From NCBI GenBank assembly GCA_003567725.1, contig PWYU01000052.1, positions 3,095-67,094 on the forward strand: a stretch of DNA of 64,000 nt, in the 5' to 3' direction. Below the pieces are notes generated by a model, which saw only the letters and a list, made by a program, of their open reading frames with translations, did not search any database and was not told where the DNA came from. The DNA comes from Syntrophomonadaceae bacterium (GTDB taxonomy: Bacteria; Bacillota; Dethiobacteria; DTU022). Shown here in pieces: positions 7,601 to 47,735 of this stretch. The stretch's first letter is position 1. Each line of letters starts with the position of its first letter. The translations under genes and the position numbers were made by a program.

Positions 7601-7699
7601 GTAACTACTCAGGCATAGCCCGCTAAGCCACAGGGGAAGGTTCCACCGTCCTCATGGCGCCGCTTATCATTCAACAAAGATAATAGGCTGAGTAGTTAC
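7601..7699 (-). mobile_element. MITE-like palindromic repeat, copy 1 (short variant, complete)
   Basis: GTAACTACTCAG...CTGAGTAGTTAC terminal inverted repeats. The perfect 8-bp direct repeat GAAAGTTT occurs at 7593-7600 and 7700-7707. The core has an imperfect hairpin (GGGGAAGGT-TCC-ACCGTCCTC). Confidence 0.8.
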
Positions 7700-7737
7700 G
7701 AAAGTTTTTTAGTTTATAAAAGGGGATAAAAGCAGCT

Positions 7738-8790
7738 GTGAAAATTGTCCTAAAACTAGTAATTGGTCTAGTGGCCCTGTTCTTCCTGGCTGTTTTCTAT
7801 ATTGATTTTACTTCAGGTAAAACCAGCCAAATCAGAGATGAAAGTGGTCATATTATCCCTGAAAGTATCGCCGTACTGGAAAAGGTAGAGCTTGGCGGAA
7901 TGGAACAATGGATTTTAATACGGGGCAAAGATAAAAACAACCCCGTTTTGATCTGGTTACATGGTGGCCCGGGTTCAACTCAGATGCCCCTGGCCCATCA
8001 TCTGGACCATGAGCTGGAAAAAGAATTCGTTGTTGTACACTGGGACCAGCGGGGTGCCGGCAAATCAAATCCCGGGGGATTTGATGAAGGCACCATGAGC
8101 TTAGAACAATTTAAAGCTGATGGACTTGAACTAATTGAATATATATTAAAGCGGCTGGACAAGGAAAAAGTATATCTCCTGGGGCACTCCTGGGGAACCT
8201 GTCTTGGAATCGAACTGGCAGCAGAAAACCCCCATTACCTTCACGCTTACATCGGTGTTAGCCAGGTTGTGAACGATCGAAAGGCTGTGCAAATCGCCTA
8301 CGATTGGCTGATGGAAAAGGCAAGAGAGAAAAACGAGCGTGAAAGGATAGAGTTTCTGGAGGAACTGGGTGAACCGCCATATAGCCACAGCGAATACAGG
8401 CAGCTGGCCAGCCTGGTAAGCGAATATGGCGGGAACTTCGACCAGGAAATATGGCGTATAGCTTTGATTGTTTTTGATGCGCCGGAGTACCGGGTCATAG
8501 ATTATTACCGTCTTCTGGGCGGTATGAACAGGGGCGGCGGCCCCATGCATGAAGAGAAAATGCTGCATTTTAACTATATTGAAAAAATCCCGGTGCTGGA
8601 AGTGCCCATCTTTTTCCTGGTCGGGGCAAAAGATTTTAACACCCCGGCGGAACTGGCGAAAGAATATTATCAGCTGATCGAAGCCCCTCAAAAAGAACTG
8701 ATCATTTTCGAAGATTCCGCCCACACGCCTTTTTTAAAAGAACCGGAACGTTTTTACCAGGCCCTCACCGGGATTAAAGCAAAGGATTAA
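7738..8790 (+). CDS. alpha/beta hydrolase (proline iminopeptidase-like) with N-terminal membrane anchor
   Basis: 350 aa with an HGGPG oxyanion motif, a GHSWG nucleophile elbow and a C-terminal DSAHTPF (His). GTG start and N-terminal TM helix. Confidence 0.8.
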   Translation: MKIVLKLVIGLVALFFLAVFYIDFTSGKTSQIRDESGHIIPESIAVLEKVELGGMEQWILIRGKDKNNPVLIWLHGGPGSTQMPLAHHLDHELEKEFVVVHWDQRGAGKSNPGGFDEGTMSLEQFKADGLELIEYILKRLDKEKVYLLGHSWGTCLGIELAAENPHYLHAYIGVSQVVNDRKAVQIAYDWLMEKAREKNERERIEFLEELGEPPYSHSEYRQLASLVSEYGGNFDQEIWRIALIVFDAPEYRVIDYYRLLGGMNRGGGPMHEEKMLHFNYIEKIPVLEVPIFFLVGAKDFNTPAELAKEYYQLIEAPQKELIIFEDSAHTPFLKEPERFYQALTGIKAKD

Positions 8791-8817
8791 GTAAAATGGA
8801 TACAAAAAAACGAGCAG

Positions 8818-9210
8818 GTGACAGAAAACATCATTAAGCAGGGCGATAAATACAGATGGGTTTATATTGTTAATCTATGGACGGATACATTTGTCCCCGT
8901 TATGGTTCTCAAGATATTTTTACTGGCTCCACTCGCCCCCGCGCTAATAGTTTTTCTGGTTACTGCTTTTGAAGGTTAGCCCGGTGAAGGGTTGCGTGCT
9001 TTTATAATAGTTTATGGTATATCTGTCGGAATAGTAATGGCCCTTCTTATCATTGTCTACCCGATCTTTGTGCTCGCCAAGGGCGGCAGGAATTCAATCC
9101 TCTTTGAAATGGATGACCAGGGGATTAACCACATTGAAATCCCCCCAACAGTAAAACATTATGACCTGATGAGATGGGCAGGCTTTCTTGCTGATCTATC
9201 CAACTATTAG
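8818..9210 (+). pseudogene. small 2-TM membrane protein ORF interrupted by one in-frame TAG
   Basis: The frame opening at GTG 8818 (MTENIIKQGDKYRWVYIVNLW...VTAFEG) hits TAG at 8977-8979. It continues in the same frame as the 72-aa track ORF 8992..9210. Both halves look like one coherent protein. Confidence 0.45.
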
Positions 9211-10736
9211 CAGGAGTCAATTTGGGCAAGAAAAACCTCGGCCTGCTGCTTAATCATGTATTTTTGCTCGTCGCTCATACGATCCAGATTTCGGTATGGA
9301 AGCCCCATACGAGGATTTGGTCTAAGCCGGTCTTCGTTAATAATCAAAAAATACCAGTACAGATAATTGAAAGGGCAGGCTCCGGCGCCCAGTTTCAGCC
9401 GAGGGTTATAGACGCACTCTGAGCAGTAGTCGGACATCCTGTTGATATAGGCGCCGGAGGCGGCATAGGGTTTTGAACTAAGCAGGCCGCCATCAGCATA
9501 GAGAGCCATGCTATGGGTATTCGGCAGTTCAACCCAATCATAGGCGTCGGCATAGACAATCAAATACCATTCTTCCACCTGGGACGGTTCAATACCGGCC
9601 AGAAGTGCAAAATTGCCGGTAATCATTAGACGCTGGATATGATGGGCATAGGCGTTTCGGCTGGTAACTTCGATAGTTTCACGCAAGCAGTTTAATTCTG
9701 TATCGCCCGACCAGTAAAAGGAAGGAAGTGAACGGGTAGCTGCAAAATAATTGGTTTTTTTATAGGCGGGCATATACATCCAGTAAAAACCCCGGATATA
9801 TTCACGCCAGCCGATAATCTGCCTTAAGAAGCCTTCAGCCGAGTTAAGCGGGACTGATCCCTGGTTGTAGGCTTGCATAACTGCTGAGCAGACTTCCCCG
9901 GGAATGAGCAGGCCTAAGTTAAGATAAGGTGAAATGGCTGCATGAAAAATAAATTCCTCACCGCTCTTCATAGCATCCTGGTAATCTCCAAACCACGGCA
10001 ATCCATGCTCGATGAAATCCTGGAGAGCTTCCAGCGCTTCAGCCCGGGTTACCGCCCAGCCAAAAGATTCCAGGTCACCAAAGTGATGAGAAAACATTTT
10101 TTCAACCAGGTTCACAACCTCCACCGTAATAGCATCCAGCTTGAATCTCTTTCGAGGCGGTATAACCAGCTTTTTAGTCAATGCCCTGCGGTTTGAAGAG
10201 TCATAGTTCCAGCTACCCCCTTCCGGTTCACTACCATTCATGAGGAAACCGGTCCGGCGGCGCATCCAGCGGTAAAAGTACTCCATGCGCAGAGTTTTTC
10301 GTCCGGCAGACCAGCGGGTAAATTCTGCCTGTGAACAGAGAAAACGGTTATCATCTCGAATTTCAACCTGGAGGCCCGGTGTAGTTTTAAAACCTTCTAT
10401 TATCTCCCGCACCCGCCACTCGCCGGGTTCGGTAATAATTACTTTTTCAACCTGGTGGCGTTTAATTGCTCGTTTTAGTTCACCGCTGAAAGAGCCCGTA
10501 TTGTTCTTTTCATCAAGATAGATATAGTCTACCCTGATGCTTTCATTGCGCAGTGATTCGGCAAAATGGCGCATGGCGGAAAGAACCAGGACAAGCTTCT
10601 GCTGGTGGTGGCGAACAGAAGTGGCTTCGTCCCAGACTTCTGTCATCAAAACCAAATCATGATCGGGATCTATACCATGCAGGGCGCTAATATTCCTACT
10701 AAGTTGATCACCCATAATTAGACGCAAAGTTTTCAA
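9207..10736 (-). CDS. Fe-S bacterial cryptochrome/photolyase family protein (FeS-BCP, (6-4) photolyase PhrB-like, COG3046)
   Basis: 509 aa with an N-terminal LRLIMGDQLS. The C-terminus carries the Cys pattern C-x2-C-x12-C (CSECVYNPRLKLGAGAC) plus the upstream Cys in ELNCLRE. This matches the 4Fe-4S ligands of the PhrB/CryB class. Confidence 0.8.
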   Translation of the reverse strand: MKTLRLIMGDQLSRNISALHGIDPDHDLVLMTEVWDEATSVRHHQQKLVLVLSAMRHFAESLRNESIRVDYIYLDEKNNTGSFSGELKRAIKRHQVEKVIITEPGEWRVREIIEGFKTTPGLQVEIRDDNRFLCSQAEFTRWSAGRKTLRMEYFYRWMRRRTGFLMNGSEPEGGSWNYDSSNRRALTKKLVIPPRKRFKLDAITVEVVNLVEKMFSHHFGDLESFGWAVTRAEALEALQDFIEHGLPWFGDYQDAMKSGEEFIFHAAISPYLNLGLLIPGEVCSAVMQAYNQGSVPLNSAEGFLRQIIGWREYIRGFYWMYMPAYKKTNYFAATRSLPSFYWSGDTELNCLRETIEVTSRNAYAHHIQRLMITGNFALLAGIEPSQVEEWYLIVYADAYDWVELPNTHSMALYADGGLLSSKPYAASGAYINRMSDYCSECVYNPRLKLGAGACPFNYLYWYFLIINEDRLRPNPRMGLPYRNLDRMSDEQKYMIKQQAEVFLAQIDSC

Positions 10737-10773
10737 AGACCCGAAAGCCTCCTTTGCAAATATTTAATAACTA

Positions 10774-10850
10774 GTAACTACTCATTCTATTGTCTTTGCT
10801 TAATGATAAGCGGCGCCATGGGGACGGTTCCACCGTCCCCTGTGGCTTAT
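10774..10850 (+). repeat. MITE-like repeat, copy 2 (short variant, distal end diverged)
   Basis: GTAACTACTCATTCTATTGTCTTTGCTTAATGATAAGCGGCGCCATGGGGACGGTTCCACCGTCCCCTGTGGCTTATAG. No second terminal repeat is present. Confidence 0.75.
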
Positions 10851-11085
10851 AGTATAATGCATGCTCTACTATTACAAGCTGTATAGAAGGTGAAAATAAT
10901 AATGTTCTTAAACCATCATAACAATAATTTTGCTGTTAATGCCATTCGCTTTTAAAAAGGAGATAGAACTTTTATAAAAACAGCGCCGTTTTTCTTTATT
11001 CCAGGTCAGACTAGGTGTATAGTATAGATAAAGACATCACCTCATATTGCGTAGAGTATGATCAATAATAGGAGCTGAAACCCTA

Positions 11086-12159
11086 ATGAAAGAAAATACC
11101 TTAAAGAAGATTTTACCGATCCTTTTGGCCCTAATAATATTGTCCTCCTTAGCCGGCTGTGCCCCTGAGGAAATAACAGATGAAGAAGAAGTAATGGAAA
11201 TAAAATTCAGCACCTGGCATGTGCCAGCCAGTGCTGAATGCACAGCTGTTTGGGATCCCATGCTTGAGGAGCTGGAAAAACAAAGCGAAGGTAGGATAGA
11301 AACAACCACCTATTACGGTGGAGCACTGGGAGCTGGTGAAGATCATTACGACATTGTAGCCGACGGCCTTTCAGATATGGGCTATTTTACCGCTACCTGG
11401 ACACCCGGCCGGTTTCCCTTAAGCGATGTCCTCTCTATGCCGGTTTTTGTTTACGGAAAAGATGTAGCCGTAGAAATAGGAAATGCTATGTATGAAAAAA
11501 TACTTTACCAGGAATTTGAAGAAGTAAAAATATTAAACTTAAATGGCTGCATTCAATCTTACTTTTGGACGACTGAACCGGTGGAAACTCTAGAAGAGGT
11601 CCGGGGATTAAGAATGAGATCACCGGGGGGTTTGCAAACTTACATGATTGAAGCATTGGGCGCAGAACCCGTCTTTATGCCCCTGGGAGATGTTTACATG
11701 GCCATGGAGCTGGGCGACATCGACGGCATTGTAACCTGCCCCCAGCTTTATTATGCTTTTAGTCTTTATGAAGCAGCCAACCATGCCGTGGTTGCATCTT
11801 TCGGCTGTGTTACAGAAGGAGTGGCCATGAACCTGGATACTTACGAGCAAGCTCCGGAAGATCTAAAGTCGATTATCGATGAAGTAACAGATAACCCCTT
11901 TAAATTAACAGGAGGTTTAACAGTTGATGCCATTGACGAAATCATGCAAAACCTGGTTGAAGAAGGAGTAGAGTTTTACGAGCTGCCTGATGAAGAAGCA
12001 CAGCGCTGGAACGACTTGTTTTCGGAAAAAGTTGTGCTCCGGTGGGTCAAACAAATGGAAGCCCAGGGTTTGCCTGGTGAAGAGGCCTTAAAGCTATACA
12101 AAGAAGAGCTCGACAAGCATGGAGTTGAATTCCCTGCTTACCCGGAAGATTGGAACTGA
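11086..12159 (+). CDS. TRAP transporter substrate-binding lipoprotein (DctP family)
   Basis: 357 aa with a lipobox (LSSLAGC) and DctP-like length. Sits directly upstream of the small and large TRAP permease genes. Confidence 0.8.
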   Translation: MKENTLKKILPILLALIILSSLAGCAPEEITDEEEVMEIKFSTWHVPASAECTAVWDPMLEELEKQSEGRIETTTYYGGALGAGEDHYDIVADGLSDMGYFTATWTPGRFPLSDVLSMPVFVYGKDVAVEIGNAMYEKILYQEFEEVKILNLNGCIQSYFWTTEPVETLEEVRGLRMRSPGGLQTYMIEALGAEPVFMPLGDVYMAMELGDIDGIVTCPQLYYAFSLYEAANHAVVASFGCVTEGVAMNLDTYEQAPEDLKSIIDEVTDNPFKLTGGLTVDAIDEIMQNLVEEGVEFYELPDEEAQRWNDLFSEKVVLRWVKQMEAQGLPGEEALKLYKEELDKHGVEFPAYPEDWN

Positions 12160-12194
12160 TAAATCCGCCATTACTGTGAAAGGATACTATATTA

Positions 12195-12734
12195 ATGCAG
12201 CGGCTGAAAGCAATAAAAAAAGCCATCCAAAAAACAACCTATTATTTTTGTGCCGTTAGCATGTTTGCGCTTATCCCCATGATGTTTCTTACAACCATAG
12301 ATGTTATAGGCCGCTCCGTTTTTTCCTGGCCCATCAGCGGTGCTGTCGAACTGTCCCGCTATATGCTGGTTATAGTTATCCTGTTAGGTTTGGCCTATAC
12401 TCAGCAAACCAAGGGGCATCCCCGGGTTACCCTTTTAGTTTCACGGTTTCCTCTGAAAATCCAGCTGGTTATTGAAATGCTGATTAACCTGTTAAATATG
12501 TTTATTGTTGTTATCCTGATATGGCAGGGCTGGGTTGTCGCCCACGGAGGAGCAGCTGCCATAGTCTCTGACGTTCTGCGTATTTCTCAATACCCTTTCA
12601 GGCTGCTGGTCTCTCTGGGCGGGACATTGCTTTTTTTAGAGCTGCTGGTTGACTTTATAACAGCGGCCAGTCGGCTTCTCGGCAAGAAATCAATAAAAAC
12701 CGGGTATGATAAAACAGCCTCACCAGTTAAATAA
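12195..12734 (+). CDS. TRAP transporter small permease (DctQ family)
   Basis: 179 aa with 4 TM helices, positioned between the DctP-like and DctM-like genes. Confidence 0.8.
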   Translation: MQRLKAIKKAIQKTTYYFCAVSMFALIPMMFLTTIDVIGRSVFSWPISGAVELSRYMLVIVILLGLAYTQQTKGHPRVTLLVSRFPLKIQLVIEMLINLLNMFIVVILIWQGWVVAHGGAAAIVSDVLRISQYPFRLLVSLGGTLLFLELLVDFITAASRLLGKKSIKTGYDKTASPVK

Positions 12735-12746
12735 GGAGGAACAATC

Positions 12747-14060
12747 TTGGATCCTGTTTATGTCGGTATAATCGGCACAATCATCGCCTTCCTTCTGCTC
12801 TTCCTGGGTATGCCCATTGCCCTGGCTCTGATGCTGGTCGGTTTTGCAGGCATCTGGCATTTGTCGTCACTTGGAGCAGCGCTTCCGGTAGCATCACGAA
12901 CAATCTATGATGTGGCCAGCAATTATTCTTATATTGTTATCCCCCTTTTTCTCCTTATGGGCGCTTTTGCGACCAGCAGCAAATTGATTGAAAACCTCTA
13001 CAGCACCTTTGATAAATGGCTGCGCCGTTTTCCCGGCGGCCTTGGCGCAGCAACTATTGCTGCCTGCGCCGGCTTTTCAGCCGTTTCGGGCTCTTCTGTA
13101 GCTACCGCTGCTGCAATGGGAGCTATAGCTTACCCAGAAATGAAAAAACATCATTACTCTCCACGTCTGGCCACAGGGACCATTGCCGCCGGAGGAACCC
13201 TGGGCTTTTTAATCCCGCCCAGTATCGGATTTGTAGTCTATGGGATGCTGGTTGAACAATCCATAGGGCGGCTGCTGATGGCAGGGGTTGTGCCCGGCCT
13301 GGTCCTGGCTGCCACCTTTGTGCTTATTATTATAATCCAGGTTAAAATAAACCCTGCATTGGCCCCCGGCAAACCGGAACCGGTTAGCTTCACAGAAAAA
13401 ATCAGAGCATTAAAAGGTGTATGGGAAATCCTGCTGGTGTTTTTAATCGTCATGGGAGGCATTTATAGAGGGTGGTTCAGCCCGACGGAAGCAGGAGCTA
13501 CCGGCGCTACGCTGCTCTTTTTTATAGCTCTGGCGAAAAGAAAACTAAATTTTAAAAGCCTGTTTCAGGCCATGCAGGAAACAATTCGAGTTTCTGTAAT
13601 GGTTTTGTTTATGATAGCCGGAGCAACAGTTTTTAGCTATTTCCTGGCTATATCAACCATACCGGCCCAGCTGGCCGGTTGGGTCATACAGCTTGACGTT
13701 TCGCCCTTCGCGATTTTGGCAATAATTCTAATGATCTATTTTTTCCTTGGCTGTTTTATTGATGCAGTATCAATGATGGTCCTCACTTTGCCGGTTATCT
13801 ACCCTTTAATTTTAGCCCTGGGTTTTGATCCCATCTTTTTTGGGGTTGTATGTGTTTTGATGATGCAAGTGGGCTTGATTACACCACCCATGGGCCTTAA
13901 CTTATACACTATTGCGGGCACCATAAGAGAGGTTCCGCTGGAAGAAATATTTATGGGAGCCCTGCCCTTTGTAATCCCTATTTTTGTAATAGTAATCTTA
14001 ATAACCATCTTTCCCCAAATTGCCCTTTTTTTACCGGAAGCAATGCTCGGCAGACAGTAA
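12747..14060 (+). CDS. TRAP transporter large permease (DctM family)
   Basis: 437 aa, polytopic. TTG start 7 nt after AAGGAGG. Typical DctM length and composition. Confidence 0.85.
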   Translation: MDPVYVGIIGTIIAFLLLFLGMPIALALMLVGFAGIWHLSSLGAALPVASRTIYDVASNYSYIVIPLFLLMGAFATSSKLIENLYSTFDKWLRRFPGGLGAATIAACAGFSAVSGSSVATAAAMGAIAYPEMKKHHYSPRLATGTIAAGGTLGFLIPPSIGFVVYGMLVEQSIGRLLMAGVVPGLVLAATFVLIIIIQVKINPALAPGKPEPVSFTEKIRALKGVWEILLVFLIVMGGIYRGWFSPTEAGATGATLLFFIALAKRKLNFKSLFQAMQETIRVSVMVLFMIAGATVFSYFLAISTIPAQLAGWVIQLDVSPFAILAIILMIYFFLGCFIDAVSMMVLTLPVIYPLILALGFDPIFFGVVCVLMMQVGLITPPMGLNLYTIAGTIREVPLEEIFMGALPFVIPIFVIVILITIFPQIALFLPEAMLGRQ

Positions 14061-14202
14061 GACAGGGAGTAAAAATTATGAACTATAAAATGCAGGTTTT
14101 AGCAACTTCTTACTGGCTATTATCATAACGATAATCTTTACTATTGTTGTCCTTTCCCATCGGTAAAGCCCGGCCAGATTACAAGAAAGGGCGGTCTTAA
14201 AT

Positions 14203-15696
14203 ATGACAAGAGTGATAGTTTTTATTACAGCATGCACAGCATTGGTTCTTATAGCCATAGCAGACCCATTTTATGCTGCTTCTGTTGAAAATCTCGATAC
14301 CGGTGCGGTAGATGCCTATATCGAAAAGGAAATGCGCGCTTCCCGCATCCCCGGGCTTGCCCTTGGAATCGTTCAAGATGGTGAAATCATCTATCTAAAG
14401 GGATACGGAAGCGCGGGAAGCGGGAGAGAGGTTGCGCCCGAAACCCCTTTCATAATTGGCTCCTTGAGCAAATCGTTTACTGCAGCAGCCGCCATGCAAC
14501 TGGTTGAAACCGGCAAACTTGAACTTGACGAGCCGGTAAAAACATACCTGCCCTGGTTCAGCATGGCTGGCGAATATGATGCGGATGAAATAACTGTACG
14601 CCATCTTCTGGTACAGACCAGCGGCATTCCCAACCTGGCCGGAGTTACCAGCCTGGCCGAAAGCAGCACCAAACGCCTGGAAGAAGAAGTAAGAGGTTTA
14701 AGCAATACCTCCCTGGAACACAGACCGGGTGAAGCCTATATATATTCCAACGCCAATTATCTTATTTTAGGCCTGCTCATTGAAGCAGTAACCGGGCAGG
14801 ATTATTCCGAATATGTCCATTCCAGTTTATTTGAATCCCTGGCAATGGAAAACAGTTACCTTTCCAAACATGAAGGTGAAACCGGCAGTATGGCTTCCGG
14901 GCACGTTCGCTGGTTCGGGACTGCCATAGAATCCGATGTCCAGTACCTGGACAACTCTTTAGCCGCCGGGTTTATTATATCGAGCGCAGAGGATATGTGC
15001 CGCTATATGTTAATGCATATAAACCAGGGCAGCTATAAGGGGATTGATGTGCTTTCCACAGGCAGCGTCAATGAAATCCACCGGCCGGGAATAGTCACAG
15101 AGGACGGCGGCGGTTATGCCATGGGCCTTTTGAAAAGAATAGAAAATGACACCGTGATCATGAACCATGATGGATCCACTCAGGGCTTTAATGCCGCAAT
15201 GGCCTTTTCTCCTGAAGATCAGTGGGCGGTAGTGGTCCTAACCAACACCAGCGGCCAGATTGAAATACCGGCCGGCTCCATAACCATGGGTGTGGCAGAG
15301 TTTTTGATGGGAAGGGAACCGGTAAACAGCTCCAGGGTACCATTTTTTATATACCTGACCCTGCTAATATTAATACTCATGCTCATATCTTTAGTGATCA
15401 GATCTATCATTATCCTTCCCCGTAAATGGGGAAATAACATTAAAGCCAAACGCCCCCGGGGAATTCCCAGCCTGCTCAGAAAAGTAATCCTGCCTCTGCT
15501 GCTGGAACTTTTCGTACCATTTATCATTTTGTATTACATTCCTGCCGGTGCCGGTTTTTCAGTCTGGCAGCTGCTGGCCCTGTTTCACCCGGACCTGGTT
15601 TATGGGATCATCCTGCTATCCTTACTGATGCTGGCTAAAGCTTTATGGCGCGCTTTCATCGCTATTAAAATTCTATCAGCCCCGGGCCGAGCCTGA
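14203..15696 (+). CDS. serine hydrolase (beta-lactamase/PBP4*-like) with C-terminal multi-TM extension
   Basis: 497 aa with a signal/anchor and an SxxK motif (GSLSKSF). The YSNANY motif is typical of class-C-related hydrolases. The last ~130 aa form 3-4 TM helices. Confidence 0.8.
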   Translation: MTRVIVFITACTALVLIAIADPFYAASVENLDTGAVDAYIEKEMRASRIPGLALGIVQDGEIIYLKGYGSAGSGREVAPETPFIIGSLSKSFTAAAAMQLVETGKLELDEPVKTYLPWFSMAGEYDADEITVRHLLVQTSGIPNLAGVTSLAESSTKRLEEEVRGLSNTSLEHRPGEAYIYSNANYLILGLLIEAVTGQDYSEYVHSSLFESLAMENSYLSKHEGETGSMASGHVRWFGTAIESDVQYLDNSLAAGFIISSAEDMCRYMLMHINQGSYKGIDVLSTGSVNEIHRPGIVTEDGGGYAMGLLKRIENDTVIMNHDGSTQGFNAAMAFSPEDQWAVVVLTNTSGQIEIPAGSITMGVAEFLMGREPVNSSRVPFFIYLTLLILILMLISLVIRSIIILPRKWGNNIKAKRPRGIPSLLRKVILPLLLELFVPFIILYYIPAGAGFSVWQLLALFHPDLVYGIILLSLLMLAKALWRAFIAIKILSAPGRA

Positions 15697-15825
15697 TCAG
15701 AAAATAGAAATAAGACTGCCCCAAACAACAAAAAGACTTCCACTTATTATTTCCTATATGAAGCGGAAGCCTTTTGGTGATTTGTTTTATATTCCCTGCG
15801 GCATGCAGTGTGAAACCCTTACTCT

Positions 15826-19167: not shown

Positions 19168-19276
19168 GGGGACGGTTCCATCGTCTTCCCTTCGACCTAC
19201 GCTGCGCTCCGGGACGCTCGAATCGTCCCCTTGGTGCCGCTTATCATTCAACAAGGGCCATAGGCTGAGTAGTTAC
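19168..19276 (-). repeat. MITE-like repeat, copy 3 (long variant B, one arm missing)
   Basis: GGGGACGGTTCCATCGTCTTCCCTTCGACCTACGCTGCGCTCCGGGACGCTCGAATCGTCCCC...GCTTATCATTCAACAAGGGCCATAGGCTGAGTAGTTAC. It lacks the GTAACTACTCAGGC...GCTAAGCCACA arm. Confidence 0.75.
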
Positions 19277-20740: not shown

Positions 20741-20860
20741 TAAGCCACAGGGGACGGTTCCACCGTCTCCCTTTCGGCCTTAAAGCTATGCTTTAAGGGA
20801 CTTTCGAACCGTCCGCATGGCGCCGCTTATCATTAAGCAAAGACAATAGGCTGAGTAGTT
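20741..20860 (-). repeat. MITE-like repeat, copy 4 (long variant A, one arm missing)
   Basis: TAAGCCACAGGGGACGGTTCCACCGTC...GGCCTTAAAGCTATGCTTTAAGGGA...CGCCGCTTATCATTAAGCAAAGACAATAGGCTGAGTAGTT. Same orientation as copy 3. Confidence 0.75.
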
Positions 20861-21039
20861 TAGATAAATAAAAAGAAGCAATACCTGTTATTTAAAGCCT
20901 ATTATCCTGATCTAAAGGTCCTCTTATGGCATGACGGTAAAGGCCTTTGCCATTTTGTCAACTGTATTATAACAAAAGGCAGCTCAAACTAGCATTGAAC
21001 TGCCCGGACCAGGTTTGCTCAAAAATATTAATGCCTGGA

Positions 21040-24248: not shown

Positions 24249-24290
24249 TCGGCCTTAAAGCTGCGCTTTAAGGGACGTTCGGAACGCTGC
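24249..24290 (-). repeat. fragment of the MITE-like repeat (inner hairpin, variant A)
   Basis: TCGGCCTTAAAGCTGCGCTTTAAGGGACGTTCGGAACG closely matches the inner part of copy 4 (TCGGCCTTAAAGCTATGCTTTAAGGGACTTTCGAACCG). No terminal repeats are present. Confidence 0.55.
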
Positions 24291-29788: not shown

Positions 29789-29933
29789 TTAACTGCTCAG
29801 GCGTAGTCCGCCAAGCCACAGTGGATGTTTCCATCGTTTGCCCTTCGGCTTTAAAGCTAAGCTTAAAGGGACGCTCAAACCACTCCCATAGCGCCGCTTA
29901 TCATTCAACAAGGGCAATAGGCTGAGTAGCTAC
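29789..29933 (-). mobile_element. MITE-like repeat, copy 6 (long variant A, full length but degenerate)
   Basis: TTAACTGCTCAGGCGTAGTCCGCCAAGCCACAG...GGCTTTAAAGCTAAGCTTAAAGGG...GCGCCGCTTATCATTCAACAAGGGCAATAGGCTGAGTAGCTAC. It fills most of the glmM-glmS spacer. Confidence 0.75.
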
Positions 29934-31339: not shown

Positions 31340-31456
31340 GTAACTACTCAGCCTATTGCCCTTGTTGAATGATAGGCGGCACCATGGGGACGGTTCGAGC
31401 GTCCCGAAGCGCAGCGCAGGCCGCAGTGAAGACAATGGAACCGTCCCCGCGGCTTT
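31340..31456 (+). repeat. MITE-like repeat, copy 7 (long variant B, distal end degraded)
   Basis: GTAACTACTCAGCCTATTGCCCTTGTTGAATGATAGGCGGCACCATGGGGACGGTTCGAGCGTCCCGAAGCGCAGCGCAGGCCGCAGTGAAGACAATGGAACCGTCCCCGCGGCTT. Confidence 0.75.
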
Positions 31457-35963: not shown

Positions 35964-36128
35964 TTTATCCACCTGCCTTTAGTCCGGGATTTTTTCATAT
36001 TATCAGTCAAAAATTTCTTAGCAGAAGTTTTAATTTTGGATCAAGTTTATCTCCTGTTTGCTAGTGCAGCGAATTCCTCAGTTCAAGTATACCAAATCCT
36101 TTTGCAGCGAACAATTGCTTAAAACAGG

Positions 36129-36269
36129 ATAACTACACAGCCTATTGTTCTTGTTTAATGATAAACGGCGCCATGGGGACGGTTCGAGCGTCCCGAAGCG
36201 CAGCGTAGGCCGAAGGGAAGACGATGGAACCGCCCCCTGTGGCTTAGCGGGCCAGGCCTGAGTAGTTAC
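36129..36269 (+). mobile_element. MITE-like repeat, copy 8 (long variant B, complete)
   Basis: ATAACTACACAGCC...GGCCTGAGTAGTTAC. Flanking 8-mers are AAAACAGG (36121-36128) and AAAACAAG (36270-36277), a 7/8 match. It overlaps the last 8 codons and the stop of the mnhF-like ORF. Confidence 0.8.
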
Positions 36270-36546
36270 AAAACAAGATATGAAGCAGTTTCAACACCCC
36301 GGTGGTGGCTATAAAAGCCCCCAGCACAAATACCAGGGCTACATCGATATAAAGGGCGATGTCGTGCCGGGGAGAGCTGACCAGTGTGAACAGGATCACC
36401 TGTCCCGCAATAAAATTTATGGCCACCAGGCGGTCCGCTGCTGTTGGGTCGGCAAAGGCCCTGATCATGGCCAGGATGATTGTGAAATCAAGGGCGGGTA
36501 TTGAAATCACCTTCTTCCGGTTCAAGCTGTTCCTCTTTTTGCTCAA
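36244..36546 (-). CDS. MnhF/MrpF-like cation:proton antiporter subunit, 3' end remodelled by repeat insertion
   Basis: ILAMIRAFADPTAADRLVAINFIAGQVILF...YIDVALVFVLGAFIATTGV resembles the MrpF/PhaF family. The C-terminal CNYSGLAR and the stop are encoded by repeat copy 8. Confidence 0.55.
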   Translation of the reverse strand: MSKKRNSLNRKKVISIPALDFTIILAMIRAFADPTAADRLVAINFIAGQVILFTLVSSPRHDIALYIDVALVFVLGAFIATTGVLKLLHILFCNYSGLAR

Positions 36547-37848: not shown

Positions 37849-37865
37849 GGAAATGAAAGCAACAT

Positions 37866-37968
37866 AACAACTCCGAGCCTTTTCACCTTCAGTTGGCTAA
37901 AACTATGGTGCAAGGCCTGGGTCGGGGGAGAAATCCCCCTGCCTCCCGTATTTGGAAAGGAGACTATG
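37866..37968 (+). promoter_or_regulatory. molybdenum cofactor (Moco) riboswitch candidate
   Basis: It contains the blocks I recall as Moco-motif signatures in order: AACTCCGAGCC ... GGCCTGGG ... GCCTCCC ... TTGGAAAGGAG. It sits directly upstream of the moeA-moaA operon and is followed by a terminator. Confidence 0.7.
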
Positions 37969-37974
37969 CCCAAA

Positions 37975-38018
37975 AAGGCCGCGTTTTCTTCTAGGAGGCG
38001 CGGCTTTATTTATGTTTT
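37975..38018 (+). terminator. leader terminator (expression platform of the Moco riboswitch)
   Basis: AAGGCCGCG-N15-CGCGGCTTT stem followed by ATTTATGTTTT. Located 20 nt before the moeA RBS. Confidence 0.6.
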
Positions 38019-38039
38019 GCCTGCAAATGAGGTGCTTAA

Positions 38040-41220: not shown

Positions 41221-41289
41221 ACTTGAAATGAATCAATTGCCCGGGAAATAATTTTGAACATGTACTTTTGTATAAAAGGAGCCCTGAAC

Positions 41290-42285
41290 ATGATATTACT
41301 GGACGGACAAGGAAGAAAGCATGACTATTTGAGAATATCTGTTACCGACCGCTGTAATTTGCGCTGTATATATTGCATGGGTAATGACGGCATTGAGCAG
41401 ACTTCACATGATCAAATTTTAAGCTATGAAGATATTTTGAAGGTTGTTTCTGCTGCTGCTGAACTGGGCATTAGTAAGATCAGAATTACCGGAGGAGAAC
41501 CATTGGTCCGAAAAGATCTGGTCGATTTAATCAAAATGATAGCGGCAGTTCCCGGTATTAAGGACCTGGCTATGACTACCAATGGTACTCTTCTGCCCCG
41601 CTATGTTGAAGCTTTGAAAAAGGCAGGTTTAAACCGGGTTAATATCAGTCTTGATACTCTTAATGCTGATAAATACCATAAGATAACCCGCTGCGGCAAG
41701 TTTGAGGATGTGATTAAAGGTATCGATGCCTCCCTGCATTATGACCTAAACCCGGTTAAACTAAATACCGTTTTGATGAAAGGGATAAATGATGACGAAG
41801 TGCTCGCCTTTTTAAACCTGGCCATGGAAAAACCATTACATATACGCTTTATAGAGTACATGCAAATTGGCGATCATGATCAGGGTTACAGCAACCATTA
41901 CCTGCCGCTTAGCTTTGTAGAAAAGACAGCTAAAAAAGCCGGACTGCCTTTGAAACCGGTTCCCCTGCCAGGAGGGGCCGGCCCGGCTGAATCATATAGC
42001 ATCCCCGGCGCTAAAGGAACAATTGGCCTGATTCACCCGATTAGCAAACACTTTTGTGACAGCTGTAACCGGCTGCGCCTAACTTCTGAAGGGTCGCTTA
42101 AAGCATGTCTTTACTGGCAGGATGAAAAACCGGTCCAGCCTTTTCTAAGCGACAAAGAGGCCCTGAAAAACTTGATCAGGGAAGTTCTCTGCGGAAAGCC
42201 GGTTGAGCACAAAATGACAGCAGACGGCAAATATGGATCAATTAACCCCGGGACCATGCGGGGCATGTCCAAAACCGGGGGTTAA
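41290..42285 (+). CDS. moaA: GTP 3',8-cyclase (radical SAM)
   Basis: LRISVTDRCNLRCIYC radical-SAM motif and a C-terminal CxxC...C (CDSCNRLRLTSEGSLKAC). ATG 41290 follows AAGGAG; the track ORF starts at 41254. Confidence 0.92.
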   Translation: MILLDGQGRKHDYLRISVTDRCNLRCIYCMGNDGIEQTSHDQILSYEDILKVVSAAAELGISKIRITGGEPLVRKDLVDLIKMIAAVPGIKDLAMTTNGTLLPRYVEALKKAGLNRVNISLDTLNADKYHKITRCGKFEDVIKGIDASLHYDLNPVKLNTVLMKGINDDEVLAFLNLAMEKPLHIRFIEYMQIGDHDQGYSNHYLPLSFVEKTAKKAGLPLKPVPLPGGAGPAESYSIPGAKGTIGLIHPISKHFCDSCNRLRLTSEGSLKACLYWQDEKPVQPFLSDKEALKNLIREVLCGKPVEHKMTADGKYGSINPGTMRGMSKTGG

Positions 42286-42298
42286 ATCAATAGCAAAC

Positions 42299-42440
42299 CT
42301 AACTACTCAGGCTTATGCCCTTGTTGAATCAGCGGCGCCATGGGGACGGTTCGAGCGTCCCTTAAAGCATAGCTTTAAGGCCGAAGGGAAGACGCTCGAA
42401 CCGTCCCCTGTGGCTTAGCGGACTAAGCCTGAGTAGTTAC
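42299..42440 (+). mobile_element. MITE-like repeat, copy 9 (long variant A, complete, best preserved)
   Basis: CTAACTACTCAGGC...GCCTGAGTAGTTAC. Flanking 8-mers are TAGCAAAC (42291-42298) and TAGCAAAT (42441-42448). A perfect 18-bp stem joins 42342-42359 and 42391-42408, enclosing the 8-bp hairpin CTTAAAGC-ATA-GCTTTAAG. Confidence 0.85.
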
Positions 42441-42479
42441 TAGCAAATCCTAATTATTATTTTAAGGGGGGATTGAGGC

Positions 42480-43517
42480 TTGCCACCAGCAATTATTCAC
42501 CTGATCGCATCCCGCTCCAAGACGGGAAAAACAACAATCCTGGAGAATACGCTTCCAATCCTGAAACAACGCGGCCTCAGGGTAGCCGCCTTAAAAGGCA
42601 ACCTGAGCCACTATGAGTTAGATTTGCCCCGCAAGGACAGCTGGCGCTTTGCCAAAGCAGGAGCTGAAATCGCCGGTTTGACTACCGAAGATAGTTTTAT
42701 TCTAATCAGTTCAAATTTAGCAATAAACGGAAGTGAAGCCGCAGCTGGTTTATTAAAAGACCTGGACTTAATAATTATCGAGGGTAATAAAAGAACCGCA
42801 AACCCAAAGATTGAAGTGGTCCGCAGCGACCTCAACCCGGAACCGCTTTTACTGCCCAACACTATTGCCGTTATCACCGACCGCGAAGACTTAAATATTG
42901 CGGTACCGGTTATTAATATTAACAACCCGGCTGCCCTGGTAGATTTTATATGCACAACGGTTGTAAAACAGGCAGGGCAGGCTGAGCTTGCAGCAGAAAA
43001 CCGTAGTGAGAACAATCAAGACCTGCATTCAAAAAGCGGTTTAACTCACTTCGATCAATCTGGCAGGCCTAAAATGGTCGATGTTTCTGCTAAAAACCAG
43101 ACCATCCGGGAAGCCTATGCCCGCGGTGAAATCTTTATGCTTCCGGAAACTTTACAACAGGTTATGGCCGGAACCATGGCTAAGGGAGACGTCCTCGGGG
43201 TAGCCCAGGTGGCTGCCGTAATGGCAGTTAAAGAAACCGGCCGTTTAATTCCTATGGCCCACCCTTTAGGCATTTCCGGTGTGGAAGTTGACTTTAATCC
43301 CCAAAAAAGCGATCCGGCTAAAATAGAAATTGGGGTCAGGGTTAAACTGGCAGGGCAGACCGGGGTGGAGATGGAAGCGCTGACCGGCGTCAGTATTGCC
43401 GCCCTGACTATTTACGATATGTGTAAAGCTATCGATAAAAACATGACTATAACAAATATCCGCCTCATTGAGAAGAAAGGAGGGCGTTCCGGCCACTATC
43501 GCCGTGAACAAAACTAA
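42480..43517 (+). CDS. MobB-MoaC fusion (MGD synthesis adaptor + cyclic pyranopterin monophosphate synthase)
   Basis: 345 aa. The N-terminal ~165 aa have a P-loop (SRSKTGKTT), MobB-like. The C-terminal ~155 aa (LTHFDQSGRPKMVDVSAK...TREAYA...MAHPLGISGV...TGVEMEALTG) are MoaC. TTG start after AAGGGGGGA. Confidence 0.85.
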   Translation: MPPAIIHLIASRSKTGKTTILENTLPILKQRGLRVAALKGNLSHYELDLPRKDSWRFAKAGAEIAGLTTEDSFILISSNLAINGSEAAAGLLKDLDLIIIEGNKRTANPKIEVVRSDLNPEPLLLPNTIAVITDREDLNIAVPVININNPAALVDFICTTVVKQAGQAELAAENRSENNQDLHSKSGLTHFDQSGRPKMVDVSAKNQTIREAYARGEIFMLPETLQQVMAGTMAKGDVLGVAQVAAVMAVKETGRLIPMAHPLGISGVEVDFNPQKSDPAKIEIGVRVKLAGQTGVEMEALTGVSIAALTIYDMCKAIDKNMTITNIRLIEKKGGRSGHYRREQN

Positions 43518-44431
43518 TGCCTGAAATAATCGCAGTTTGTACCAGCCCTAACAAAGGGCAGCGCAAAAAAAATATCGGCAACAGTTTATTAATTAAAGAC
43601 AGGGGCCTTGAAGGCGATGCCCATGCCGGTTTCGAGCATCGTCAGGTTAGCCTTCTGGCTGAAGAAAGCATAGCAAAAATGACCGCTCAGGGTCTGGATG
43701 TCGGCCCGGGTGATTTCGCTGAAAACCTGACTACGCGAGGCATTGAGCTGGCCAGTCTGCCTGTCGGTACCAGGTTAAAGGCCGGTTATGAAGCATTTTT
43801 ACGGGTCACCCAGATCGGTAAAGAATGCCATGACCGCTGTGCCATCTACTATCAAGCCGGCGATTGCGTCATGCCTCGTGAAGGAATTTTTGCTGAAGTC
43901 CTAAGAGAGGGCGCTATCAAAACAGGAGATAAACTGGAGATTATCCCTTCATACCGTTTTGGAGTAATCACCGCCAGCGACAAAGGAGCCGGCGGGGAAC
44001 GTGAAGACAAAAGTGGCCCGGTAATTAGCGAAACGCTGTTACCCTGGGGCGATGTAGTTGAAACTGCCATCGTTCCCGATGAACAGGCAGCCTTAAGTAC
44101 CAAGATGCAGGAAATGATTGCAAAAGGAGTTGAGGCAATCTTTACTACAGGCGGAACCGGGTTGAGCCCACGGGATGTAACACCTGAGGCCACCCTGGCA
44201 GTAATTGATCGGGAAGTACCCGGTATTGCTGAAGCTATTAGGCGGGAAACAGCGGCAGCTACAGCCAAAGCCATGCTATCCAGAGCTGTAGCAGGAATAA
44301 GCGGTTCAACTTTGATCATTAACCTTCCTGGCAGTCCAAAAGCAGTGGCGGAATGCCTGGCCGTTATTACGCCAGTGCTTGATCATGCCCTGGAAACAGT
44401 AACCGGCCGCGGTGGAGATTGTGCCCGTTAA
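43517..44431 (+). CDS. MOSC domain fused to MogA/MoaB-type molybdopterin adenylyltransferase domain
   Basis: 304 aa. The N-terminal ~140 aa are MOSC-like (GLEGDAHAG...RQVSLL). The C-terminal ~160 aa carry TTGGTGLSPRDVTPEA and INLPGSPKA (MogA/MoaB). TAATG start/stop overlap with the upstream gene. Confidence 0.8.
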   Translation: MPEIIAVCTSPNKGQRKKNIGNSLLIKDRGLEGDAHAGFEHRQVSLLAEESIAKMTAQGLDVGPGDFAENLTTRGIELASLPVGTRLKAGYEAFLRVTQIGKECHDRCAIYYQAGDCVMPREGIFAEVLREGAIKTGDKLEIIPSYRFGVITASDKGAGGEREDKSGPVISETLLPWGDVVETAIVPDEQAALSTKMQEMIAKGVEAIFTTGGTGLSPRDVTPEATLAVIDREVPGIAEAIRRETAAATAKAMLSRAVAGISGSTLIINLPGSPKAVAECLAVITPVLDHALETVTGRGGDCAR

Positions 44432-44537
44432 AATTCAAAACATCATCATTACCAGGCTCTAAATTAGTTGGCTTTTGGTGGCATTTGCCCCAGGTTTAGA
44501 ATACAAATCGATCAGGTTTATAACATTTCTAAAGATA

Positions 44538-45278
44538 CTATTCTTTAAGGGCACTCAAAATTGAGCGCAGCCTTTCTCTGTAGCCTGCTGTTTCAATAAC
44601 CGTACCCGTAACCACAATATCGGCACCTGCCTGTCGAACCCTGCGCGCATCTATGGCGGTACGAATACCACCACCAACTATTAAAGGTACGGTTAGTTCT
44701 CTTTTAACCGCCCTGATCATGCCAGCTGGAACCGGTTGAGCAGCGCCGTTGCCGGCTTCGAGAAAGACATAACTCATCCCCATGAATTGAGCGGTTAGGG
44801 CATAACCGATGGCTTGCCAGAAATTATCACGGGCAACCAGGTCTGCTTCGCCGATTTCGCCAAGCTTCATACCCGGTTCCACCAGAATATAGCCAATTGA
44901 TAAAACTTCAACCTCCAAGCGCTTCAAAACTGAAGAAACTTTAGATTGAGTGCCACTGACAAACTTAGAATTACGAGAATTTAAAAGGCTAAGCATCAAA
45001 AAAGCATCCAGGTTTAGGCAAATAGACTCAGTGCCGGTAGGAAAAAACAAAACCGGTATAGAGGTTCTATCTTTAACCACTTCTGCAGTTTCTGTAAGAG
45101 CCCTTTGGGTAACCCCGGAAGATCCGCCTACAAATATCAAATCGCTTCCGACCTCCTGGGCAGTCACAGCCAGCCTGCCCGCTGCCTCAGGAACCTGCCG
45201 GGAAGGATCAATCAAGGTGATATGAACAGCACCCTGTTCAAGTTTTTGCTCAATGTATTTTTGAACTTTCATCGCCAT
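44538..45278 (-). CDS. (hepta/geranylgeranyl)prenylglyceryl phosphate synthase family protein (PcrB/GGGPS)
   Basis: 246 aa TIM-barrel pattern: LIDPS..., GSDLIFVGGS, PVLFFP, GGGIRT...GADIVVTG. Confidence 0.7.
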   Translation of the reverse strand: MAMKVQKYIEQKLEQGAVHITLIDPSRQVPEAAGRLAVTAQEVGSDLIFVGGSSGVTQRALTETAEVVKDRTSIPVLFFPTGTESICLNLDAFLMLSLLNSRNSKFVSGTQSKVSSVLKRLEVEVLSIGYILVEPGMKLGEIGEADLVARDNFWQAIGYALTAQFMGMSYVFLEAGNGAAQPVPAGMIRAVKRELTVPLIVGGGIRTAIDARRVRQAGADIVVTGTVIETAGYRERLRSILSALKE

Positions 45279-45777
45279 TACCTTCTTCTTAGATAGAGTT
45301 CCACCAGTTACTCCGGCTTTAAAATAGCCAGCTTCTTTTTTATAGATTATAAAATTTTTAGCTAAGCTTATTATAATTTAGATCTGCCGGTTTGACAACT
45401 TATTAAGAACACTGCATAACACCGTTCCTGGCCATAATCCCGATTATTGCAGCGTTTTAAAGGCTTTTTCTACTTAAATATGCCTTTCTAATTCAAATTT
45501 TTTACTTCTTCATATCTATTCTGGTGTATTGCAAATGCCAGCGATGGCGAAAGGGCAGATTTTCAGAGAACGAACAGAGACATGTCCTCAAGAAAGTGAT
45601 GGCAGTGCCGTTTGATCCAGGCTGGCTTTTTAAAGATAAATTGGGACCCGACTTAAGAGTTAATTATTATCAAGGTCTTTTGTTTGTGCTATTATTAGAT
45701 CACGGCTTAAATGGAATCCGAAACCGTTTACTTTAAAGAGTGTTGTACTGAATAAATCCACAGGGGAGGGATCTTTC

Positions 45778-46302
45778 TTGAATCTTGTTGAATATAATGG
45801 CAAGAAACCGGTTTTTGGAAATAGGGTTTATGTAGATCCAATGGCCATCCTGATCGGTGATATCGTCATAAATGATGGAGTAGGTGTCTGGCCCGGTGCA
45901 GTGATCAGGGCAGATGAAGGGCAGGTTATCCTGGAGCAAGGGGTTATGGTTTTGGAGCATGCTCTTATTGAACCCGGCAAAGGCGGAGCTTTATCGGTAG
46001 GCAGCGGAACGATCATCAGTCATGGCGCTATCATTCATGGAGCATCTATAGGCAAAAATTGCGTTATAGGGATTGGCGCACGGGTGCTTGACAATGCGGT
46101 GATTAAAGACCATTCTATTGTCGGAGCAGGAGCCCTTGTTGCTCCCAATAAAGAAATTCCTTCAAAAAAGATGGTCCTGGGCCTGCCCGGAAAAATCATC
46201 AAGGATCTCGATCAAACTAGCCTGGAAACCACTAAAAAAGAATGGGACATGCTTAACAATAAGCTTGATTATTACATCAAAGTAAGAGGCATAAAGCCTT
46301 AA
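45778..46302 (+). CDS. gamma-carbonic-anhydrase-like left-handed beta-helix (hexapeptide repeat) protein
   Basis: 174 aa with hexapeptide repeats (IGDIVINDGVGVWPGAVIRAD...IGKNCVIGIGARVLDNAVI). TTG start 7 nt after GGGGAGGG. Confidence 0.8.
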   Translation: MNLVEYNGKKPVFGNRVYVDPMAILIGDIVINDGVGVWPGAVIRADEGQVILEQGVMVLEHALIEPGKGGALSVGSGTIISHGAIIHGASIGKNCVIGIGARVLDNAVIKDHSIVGAGALVAPNKEIPSKKMVLGLPGKIIKDLDQTSLETTKKEWDMLNNKLDYYIKVRGIKP

Positions 46303-46373
46303 ATTAAGGACAGGGATGGCTACCAGACTGCAGATAATATAATTGCTGAACGTTGAGGCCCACTAACTTAAAG

Positions 46374-46394
46374 GACCGCCCAAATTGGGCGGTC
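46374..46394. terminator. bidirectional hairpin between convergent genes
   Basis: GACCGCCCA-AAT-TGGGCGGTC perfect 9-bp stem between the LbH gene (+) and rpsI (-). Confidence 0.6.
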
Positions 46395-46428
46395 TCTTAA
46401 TATATAATGATATATTGCTCTTAAGAAC

Positions 46429-46821
46429 TTATCTTTTGGAGAATTGTGGCGCGCGGCGGGCTTTTTTCAAGCCGTACTTCTTGCGTTCTATCATCCGTGG
46501 ATCACGGGTTAGGAAACCACTTTTCTTTAAAACCGGCCTGTAATCATCATCTGCCTGTAAAAGAGCACGGGCTATTCCATGCCTGATTGCGCCGGCCTGA
46601 CCGGAAAATCCCCCGCCTTCGACTTTAGAGATTACGTCAAATGAGCCTTCGGTTTCAGTAGCCACGAGCGGCTGCTTGACAATTAGCTTAAGGGTTTCCA
46701 ATCCAAAGTAGTCGTCCATTTCTTTACCGTTAATTACAATTTTACCATTACCCGGCATTAAACGGACTCTTGCAACAGATTTTTTACGGCGTCCCGTTCC
46801 CATATATTGTACTTCGCTCAA
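46429..46821 (-). CDS. rpsI: 30S ribosomal protein S9
   Basis: [12 protein letters not shown]... and a C-terminal [12 protein letters not shown]. Confidence 0.95.
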
Positions 46822-47285
46822 GAGTTAGGGCCCCCTTCCTTCTTATCTTCCGGCCCTTCTCCCAGGACTTGCGGCTGCTGTGCCTGGTGAGGGTGCTGGT
46901 CATCCCTGTAGACTCGTAGTTTTTTCAACATAGCCCTTCCCAGCCGGTTGTGGGGGAGCATGCCCCGAACAGCATAGTACATCGCTTTGTCCGGATTCTT
47001 ATCCATCAAGGTAGCATAGTCGGTTTTTTTTAGGCCCCCGGGATACCCTGAATGGCGGTAATGAAACTTTTGCTCCGCCTTACGCCCGGTTAAAACCATC
47101 TTTTCTGCATTGAGGATAATGACATGGTCACCGGTATCCAGATGGGGAGTATATTCCGGTTTATGTTTGCCTTTTAACAAACTTGCCGCTTCAGTTGCCA
47201 CTCTACCCATGGGGCGCCCGGCAGCGTTAATAATGTACCAGCTGCGTTTAATTTCGCTTGGTTTAGCCATATACGTAGTGCGCAT
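46818..47285 (-). CDS. rplM: 50S ribosomal protein L13
   Basis: [21 protein letters not shown]... ATG 47285 follows AAGGAGAGA. It has a short acidic C-terminal extension. Confidence 0.93.
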
Positions 47286-47442
47286 TTCCACTCTCTCCTT
47301 TTAACTCTTCCAGTAAAGCCACAACCTACATTTTAATATACCGACCCTGCTATGTCAAGCTAAAACCGCGCTCTTTTAACGATTATCAGGTAAATTATTT
47401 TCGGCTATAACCAAACCGGGGCTTTTATTCAATTAAGATTTT

Positions 47443-47735
47443 GTAACTACTGATATGGAAGTGCATGTCAACCCCCATTTTGCAACGGTTGTTTTATGCT
47501 TTTCCAGTCTACCAGTTACTTTTCAGCGCCCAGCTTATCATCAGAAAACCAAAATGATGCCGAGCAGGAGCCCCGGTGCGCCCCTTAAAAGGCGCGGAAG
47601 ACAAGGCTCCTACCCCAATAAGCGGCGCCAGTGGGACAGTTCGAACGTCCTTTAAAGCATAAGCTTTAAGGGCCTGATGGGGAGACGGTGGAACTGTCCC
47701 CTGTGGCTTAGCGGGCTATGCCTGAGAGTAGTTAC
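47443..47735 (+). mobile_element. MITE-like repeat, copy 10 (long variant A carrying ~165 bp of extra internal sequence)
   Basis: GTAACTACTGA...[insert]...AATAAGCGGCGCCAGTGGGACAGTTCGAACGTCCTTTAAAGCATAAGCTTTAAGGG...CCTGTGGCTTAGCGGGCTATGCCTGAGAGTAGTTAC. Flanking 8-mers are AAGATTTT (47435-47442) and AAGAGTTT (47736-47743), a 7/8 match. Confidence 0.7.

Follow-up and report, generated by a model that had tools for sequence, protein, structure and literature searches.

The window analysed here, a 64,000-nucleotide stretch of contig PWYU01000052.1 (positions 3,095 to 67,094) from the Syntrophomonadaceae bacterium assembly GCA_003567725.1, carries ten dispersed members of a single family of short repeats, which we have numbered c1 to c10 by position. 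We consider it very probable that they constitute a MITE family (miniature inverted-repeat transposable elements), non-coding and 99 to 293 bp in length, moved in trans by the DDE transposase of the ISBst12 group, that is, the insertion sequences (IS) of the IS66 family with a single open reading frame (ORF). A first-pass annotation of this DNA had proposed a MITE and, as a hypothesis, a relation to IS66. The MITE proposal is supported by what we found: the elements are short and non-coding, are bounded by terminal inverted repeats (TIRs), lie between direct 8-bp duplications of fixed length and variable sequence, occur in many dispersed copies and match no Rfam family. Regarding the mechanism, the transposase would recognise the 14- to 19-bp TIRs (GTAACTACTCAGSC...) and the element would be inserted at a staggered 8-bp cut, the repair of which would leave the direct duplication. 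We read directly the ends and the duplications, as well as the match of the former to the ends of autonomous IS elements; the identity of the acting transposase is what we infer, because none lies in the window.

Copies, terminal repeats and flanking duplications

The copies were oriented alike, with GTAACTACTCAGCCTATTG..AATGATAAGCGGCGCCATGGGGACGG as the A-end and CCGTCCCCTGTGGCTTAGCGGGCTATGCCTGAGTAGTTAC as the B-end, aligned, and used to build an nhmmer profile. This profile recovers exactly the ten places described below, with no further match in 64 kb, and a repeat search pairs the same intervals with each other, in direct and inverted orientation, at 71-100% identity; alignment, profile and pairing thus bear out that the ten places hold one family. 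Allowing up to two mismatches, the 14-nt TIR GTAACTACTCAGSC occurs 12 times in the window against 0.46 expected, a number reached in 0 of 100 dinucleotide-preserving shuffles. Both ends are present in five copies (those starting at 7601, 29789, 36129, 42299 and 47443) and only the A-end in four (10774, 19168, 20741 and 31340). The earlier count of nine copies plus a fragment was therefore right in that all ten are members, but only five of them are two-ended and four are one-ended. The elements enclose no ORF of at least 100 aa. Their placement between genes, given before as general, holds for nearly all of them, the exception being copy 36129-36269, which runs into the 3' end of an mrpF-like ORF.

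Among ten complete copies, five from the window and five from other soda-lake genomes, seven have 8-bp flanks that match at 7/8 positions or better, three of them perfectly. The window contributes four of its five complete copies (one with 8/8 and three with 7/8), and the four repeats quoted in the first-pass annotation are exactly as it gave them. For randomly chosen window positions at equal spacing, the probability of a match of at least 7/8 is 0.0007. The flanks are direct rather than inverted and their sequence differs between copies, which identifies them as target-site duplications outside the element and not element sequence. In the other genomes, the repeats were CCTGATTC (locus L009, 8/8), AAGCAGTA (L027, 8/8) and AATATTTT / AATTTTTT (L011, 7/8).

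Regarding the complete copies of the window, c1 (7601-7699, minus strand) is a short form of 99 bp with two perfect TIRs, located 19 nt past the stop codon of the thiamine-binding-protein gene and flanked by GAAAGTTT at 7593-7600 and 7700-7707 (8/8). The copies c8 (36129-36269, plus strand) and c9 (42299-42440, plus strand) are long forms of 141 and 142 bp. The former lies between AAAACAGG (36121-36128) and AAAACAAG (36270-36277), and the latter, situated between moaA and mobB-moaC, between TAGCAAAC (42291-42298) and TAGCAAAT (42441-42448), with 7/8 matches in both cases. c9 is also the most perfectly palindromic copy, with a predicted fold as single-stranded DNA of -50.6 kcal/mol (z = -11.3). 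The B-end of c8 supplies the last eight codons and the stop (CNYSGLAR*) of the mrpF/phaF-like ORF at 36244-36546 (minus strand), which matches the Pfam family MrpF_PhaF with E = 1e-8; as reconstructed, this gene ended ...ILF-TAA before the insertion, its stop codon straddling the duplicated 8-mer. Copy c10 (47443-47735, plus strand) is a 293-bp variant whose right ~115 bp (47617-47735) are family core and B-end. Its left 175 bp are unique, with no relative elsewhere in the window or in any locus compared, yet they begin with GTAACTACTG; the flanking AAGATTTT (47435-47442) and AAGAGTTT (47736-47743) match at 7/8, and the duplication overlaps the truA stop codon. Finally, c6 (29789-29933, minus strand), between glmS and glmM, is complete and decayed, with the TIRs GTAGCTACTCAGCC / TTAACTGCTCAGGC.

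Among the one-ended copies, c2 (10774-10850, plus strand) is a short form with the A-end TIR GTAACTACTCATTC and a GGGGACGGTTCCACCGTCCCC hairpin, which terminates at ...CTGTGGCTTA and has neither B-end TIR nor duplication. The identical point terminates c4 (20741-20862, minus strand), formed by a degenerate A-end, TAAACTACTCAG, and a core with a CTTAAAGC-ATA-GCTTTAAG centre. In c3 (19168-19276, minus strand) the A-end, 12 nt past the stop of an MFS transporter gene, is followed by a core with a GAAGCGCAGCG-type centre and the B-end is missing, while c7 (31340-31456, plus strand), between glmM and ybbR, retains A-end and core and has lost its B-end. The fragment c5 (24249-24290, minus strand) comprises 42 bp of internal core, of the TTAAAGC flavour. 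Two inverted pairs present their A-ends face to face: c6 and c7 bracket glmM (1.4 kb), and c1 and c2 bracket hydrolase and photolyase-related genes (3.1 kb). Such pairs resemble a composite transposon, probably by coincidence.

Outside the window, copies of the family are found in at least eight other soda-lake metagenome-assembled genomes (MAGs) and metagenome contigs. A metagenome scan with a 31-base A-end pattern, which was too strict, gave 0 loci, and one with a looser B-end pattern gave seven. Searched by BLAST against 72,556 plasmids, c9 and c10 had no match, and in the viral contigs scanned the core was absent and the 19-nt end matched twice. One TIR-like match, at position 5942 of L013, falls within a coding ORF, and we attribute it to chance.

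Agreement with the ends of autonomous ISBst12-group elements

The terminal sequence GTAACT(A/G)(C/T)TCAGC is common to autonomous, full-length single-ORF IS elements of Geobacillus, Bacillus thuringiensis, Deinococcus and one deltaproteobacterial MAG. The Geobacillus kaustophilus plasmid pHTA426 holds a single-ORF 'IS66-like' transposase (L043), in an element with the left and right inverted repeats GTAACTATTCAGCC and GTATCTATTCAGCC and the perfect 8-bp duplication AACTCGTC. A tblastn search of plasmids with this transposase gave further elements, whose ends we read directly, and perfect 8-bp duplications were again found in G. thermoleovorans pLDW-1 (L044; ends GTAACTATTCAGCC, duplication ATTTTCAT), in B. 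thuringiensis pBMB0231 (L045; 1630 bp, GTAACTACTCAGCT at both ends, duplication AATTTATC) and in Deinococcus wulumuqiensis (L047; ends GTAACTGCTCAGCA, duplication TAAAAATC). The MAG locus L052 contains a complete IS of 1470 bp with the left inverted repeat GTAACTACTCAGCCTGTTG and a 455-aa ORF with the domains DDE_Tnp_IS66, zf-IS66 and DUF6444. In total, four of the five autonomous elements read have a perfect 8-bp duplication, that of L052 not being recognisable. Pfam places DDE_Tnp_IS66 in the ORFs of these elements, and zf-IS66 also in the two Bacillota ORFs.

By comparing these ends with those of the window, we observed that the window TIR agrees with the pHTA426 element at 13 of 14 bases, that its first 13 bases are identical to those of the B. 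thuringiensis element, and that the left end of L052 shares 18 of 19 terminal bases with c7. It has been reported that IS66-family ends start with GTAA and that 8-bp repeats are made (PMC11946415), and that ISDge4, a member of the ISBst12 group whose transposition has been observed, has the TIRs GTGACTACTCAGCA / GTAACTGCTCAGCA and an 8-bp repeat (PMC12898284). The suspected link to IS66 is thus supported by the comparison of ends, specifically for the ISBst12 subgroup, because autonomous elements of this group with the same ends and 8-bp duplications could be read directly; the full-length IS that the first-pass annotation suggested looking for exists in other genomes (L043, L044, L045, L047 and L052). 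The RefSeq name of the pHTA426 transposase (NC_006509, 14182-15639) is 'IS66-like element ISGka4 family transposase'. A study of transposition in Geobacillus uses ISGka4 for an element of the ISLre2 family and counts a single IS66/ISBst12 copy for the plasmid (PMC8024623), so this looks like a naming clash between the two sources.

The reach of these ends was seen in a scan with the first 19 bases of the MITE (GTAACTACTCAGCCTRTTG), one genome per species, which returned 25 loci, among them L052, whose left end has exactly this sequence. The 19-nt end recurs without change in MAGs whose labels name about a dozen phyla, and at least four unrelated short MITE-like families have it at their borders (e.g. 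L057:4403, L062:3458, L068:1701 and L051:3657), with perfect 8-bp duplications in L057 (132 bp), L062 (267 bp) and L068 (173 bp). According to this distribution over phyla and unrelated MITE families, ISBst12-type transposases appear to be frequent mobilisers. Nine of the GTAACTACTCAGCCTRTTG matches fall in one Ignavibacteriales MAG. On 24 loci of the same scan, tblastn with five IS66-type transposases detected the full-length L052 element and a small C-terminal fragment in L055. Inverted repeats spaced 0.7-4 kb apart, as a parent IS beside the copies would give, were searched in all loci, and nothing IS-like was obtained.

Several observations weigh against the reading that we propose. With the same five transposases, tblastn finds nothing across the window or in the related loci fetched before that scan, and Pfam detects no transposase among 43 window ORFs (nearly every long ORF as far as position 48,485), as the first-pass annotation had said of the window. 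Only GTAA is common to the window ends and the classical IS66 ends (GTAAGCG), the close match being with the ISBst12 subgroup. Besides, the window copy at 29789 (match 1/8) and the external copies L012 and L013 have no clear 8-bp repeat. Finally, there is no clean empty site, since the host assemblies are all filled and the intergenic DNA of the next relatives is unalignable.

The palindromic core and a second type of MITE

Inside the ends, the elements contain a nested palindrome with the outer stem GCCATGGGGACGG / CCGTCCCCTGTGGC, which forms a core of ~85 nt (GCGGCGCCATGGGGACGG...CCGTCCCCTGTGGCTTAGC). Its inner segment comes in three flavours, CTTAAAGC-ATA-GCTTTAAG, GAAGCGCAGCG and a CTGACTTCTGA repeat, the last one in other genomes; the short forms are devoid of it, and their loop can face either way, reading TGGAA in c1 and TTCCA in c2 and L027. 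The modular build described before, with short and long forms, two central flavours and the CCCTTCGGCC motif, was found in all its parts. The short forms look like deletions between GACGGT repeats, and the A-arm of c9 has been made complementary to its B-arm. Deletion, loop inversion and conversion of one arm by the other, all to be expected in long palindromes, would explain the variants. The point of breakage also recurs: ...GTGGCTTA, at the base of the core palindrome, is where c2 (10850), c4 (20741), L024:2854 and L031:5501 break, and L028:477 breaks at the palindrome base too (|TGCGGCGCC). That independent one-ended copies share the exact break point suggests recurrent hairpin-associated breakage or recombination, and not random truncation.

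When genomes were scanned with the core motif, the same core was found within other ends (CACTACAGCGAAA...TTTCGCTGTAGTG) in several related MAGs. These type-2 copies have perfect 4-bp duplications in seven out of seven cases: TTAT, TTAG, CTAA (three times), TTAA and CTAG, that is, YTAR or TTAT. They comprise L020, L022, L025, L030 and L033, from the MAG binchicken_co32_98, together with L024:1319-1483, L034:1522-1664, L029 and L031:5501-5607. Those in binchicken_co32_98 are nearly identical, which suggests a recent burst. No type-2 end is present in the window; some MAGs contain both types of MITE (L024; CSSed162cmB_344 and CSSed165cm_165). A third, diverged end (ATATAGTCAGTAAGCC / ACATACTCAGTGAACC) was observed on core-containing copies at L023:7510-7604, in a 'Desulfovibrionaceae' co-assembly MAG, and at L021:2142-2197, in a Bacillota MAG; either another subfamily or an artefact of binning could account for them.

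In view of the second type, one could argue that the core itself is the selected or self-propagating module, a DNA or RNA hairpin with a function for the host or in transposition, and that the shells, with ISBst12-type ends and 8-bp duplications or with CACTACAGCGAAA ends and 4-bp YTAR duplications, are mere vehicles that have captured it repeatedly. If so, the core would add something, either efficient transposition via the hairpin or a function of the DNA or RNA at the level of the host. The core of c8 is 96% identical to that of the type-2 copy L034, while their ends are 33-46% alike; two of the three central flavours are common to both types, and several copies of both break exactly at the palindrome base. 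A few compensatory arm changes (GGGGAAGG/CCTTCCCC in L009, GGGACAG/CTGTCCC in c10) point in the same direction. However, no intact core was found without shell ends, no orientation bias is seen, the cores match no Rfam family and are not scored as terminators. The folding and covariation check recommended in the first-pass annotation was favourable only in its first half: the fold is strong, as in c9, and the consensus fold of 15 cores is a 22-pair hairpin, but the RNAalifold covariation term is about 0 and only four of the 22 pairs show rare double changes. Moreover, the two types are found together in single MAGs, so that the common flavours could have come about by gene conversion between homologous cores. 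We therefore regard a self-standing core as unlikely; it is simplest to assume that ends were exchanged and that the cores then underwent gene conversion in genomes holding both types.

A role of the repeats as cis-regulatory elements or small structured RNAs (terminators, mRNA stabilisers or small-RNA genes), rather than as mobile DNA, is considerably harder to sustain. Many copies do lie 6-50 nt after stop codons, and they have stable hairpins with a C-UUCG-G-like loop in one orientation. Nonetheless, their orientation relative to flanking transcription is 4:4, covariation is weak, and flanking duplications are not expected of RNA genes. The search of Rfam gave no match at gathering score (best E-value 0.53), so the repeat is not one of the structured RNAs of Rfam, an identity that the first-pass annotation had named as fatal to a MITE. 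As for intrinsic terminators, only two weak predictions overlap elements (31454-31439 and 47576-47560), with no U-tract terminators otherwise. Because of the even orientation, the lack of an Rfam match and the lack of terminator calls, a dedicated RNA function is unsupported, and we consider this explanation very improbable. Exaptation as RNA or regulatory elements may still apply to single copies. A tRNA-like origin was rejected, there being no tRNA-like call.

Elements of the repetitive extragenic palindromic type (REP/REPIN, dependent on RAYT) are palindromes of 20-40 bp with a GTAG/CGTC head, no duplication and an associated RAYT gene. That the window family should be of this kind, or consist of IS200/IS605-type palindromes moved as single-stranded hairpins by an HUH enzyme (RAYT/TnpA), can practically be discarded: it shares with them abundant, mostly intergenic palindromes able to form long hairpins (as in the fold of c9), but those systems have neither target-site duplications nor long TIRs and the highly significant 8-bp direct duplications contradict them, the TIRs match DDE-type IS66/ISBst12 ends, and no Y1/HUH transposase was found among the window ORFs scanned.

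Gene surroundings, age and comparison with known elements

The genes flanking the MITEs are ordinary housekeeping genes: those for the thiamine-binding protein, an alpha/beta hydrolase and the TRAP transporter dctPQM, followed by glmS-glmM-ybbR-cdaA, the molybdenum-cofactor biosynthesis operon, truA-rplM-rpsI and a large ribosomal protein cluster. With many copies found in the few bases after stop codons, this is where insertions mainly survive, and one of them replaced the final codons of a gene. A molybdenum-cofactor riboswitch (37861-37974, plus strand; Rfam RF01055, 65.5 bits) and, after it, a terminator-like hairpin (37975-38007) lie upstream of the moeA/moaA/mobB-moaC operon, which contains c9. 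Elsewhere in the window, an ORF at 432-1499 (plus strand) has a GYF_2 domain and MORN repeats; its coding repeats form the direct-repeat family D9, unrelated to the MITE family.

The host, an uncultured Bacillota, belongs to a soda-lake sediment population that has been assembled several times (GCA_003560055.1, GCA_007135065.1, GCA_003563265.1, GCA_007117995.1, and ENA, Logan and JGI contigs). Looking up the exact GlmS and L13 proteins led only to this population, and every one of its assemblies has the same insertions in place, at 99.7-99.96% identity with the window. Beyond this population, the closest genomes are Syntrophomonadaceae MAGs of these lakes, whose GlmM is 81% identical. In relatives at ~76-80% nucleotide identity (L002 and L003), the element is missing from both glmM spacers, and the ybbR-glmM spacer measures 83 bp; that of the window, at 205 bp, consists of 88 bp and the 117-bp element. 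These lengths fit an insertion after the split of the lineages, in spacers that are too diverged for base-level alignment. Cores of window and sister-genome copies are 63-92% identical. Because copies differ by 8-37%, three of the four window duplications are mismatched, four copies have lost an end and all the assemblies share the insertions, the family looks old; in the host genome, it is probably no longer mobile, and its copies have the look of relics of mobilisation in trans.

In the literature searched, we found no description of a MITE derived from IS66/ISBst12, and a string search for GTAACTACTCAG returned one paper only, which is unrelated. As far as we found, the family is previously unnamed, while the kind of element is well known. 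The ISBst12 group thereby gains a clear non-autonomous partner. When soda-lake Bacillota MAGs are annotated, the family accounts for the contig breaks and the long intergenic spacers met in otherwise conserved operons (glmS-glmM-ybbR, truA-rplM and moaA-moaC), as well as at least one altered gene end, that of the mrpF-like gene. The part most worth following up is the common core in two MITE types that differ in transposition chemistry, a natural case for the exchange of ends and cargo between MITEs.

Compared with known systems, the window elements share their TIRs and the 8-bp target-site duplication with the ISBst12 group (ISBst12, ISDge4, and the pHTA426/pLDW-1 and pBMB0231 elements). Those IS elements, however, measure 1.45-1.64 kb and encode one DDE_Tnp_IS66 transposase of 449-485 aa, whereas the window elements span 99-293 bp without an ORF and have a palindromic core with no counterpart in the IS elements examined. 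With the classical IS66 elements (IS66, IS679 and ISPa75), they have in common the GTAA start and the 8-bp duplications (PMC11946415, PMC12888890), but the classical ends read GTAAGCG... or GTAACCGTCC... instead of GTAACTACTCAG, and these elements carry the three ORFs tnpA, tnpB and tnpC. Finally, like other bacterial MITEs (Correia, RUP, MITEAba12 and MITEPsy1), the family described here is short, non-coding, bounded by TIRs, flanked by duplications, mostly intergenic and trans-mobilised, from all of which it differs in the parent IS family, the TIRs and the length of the duplication.

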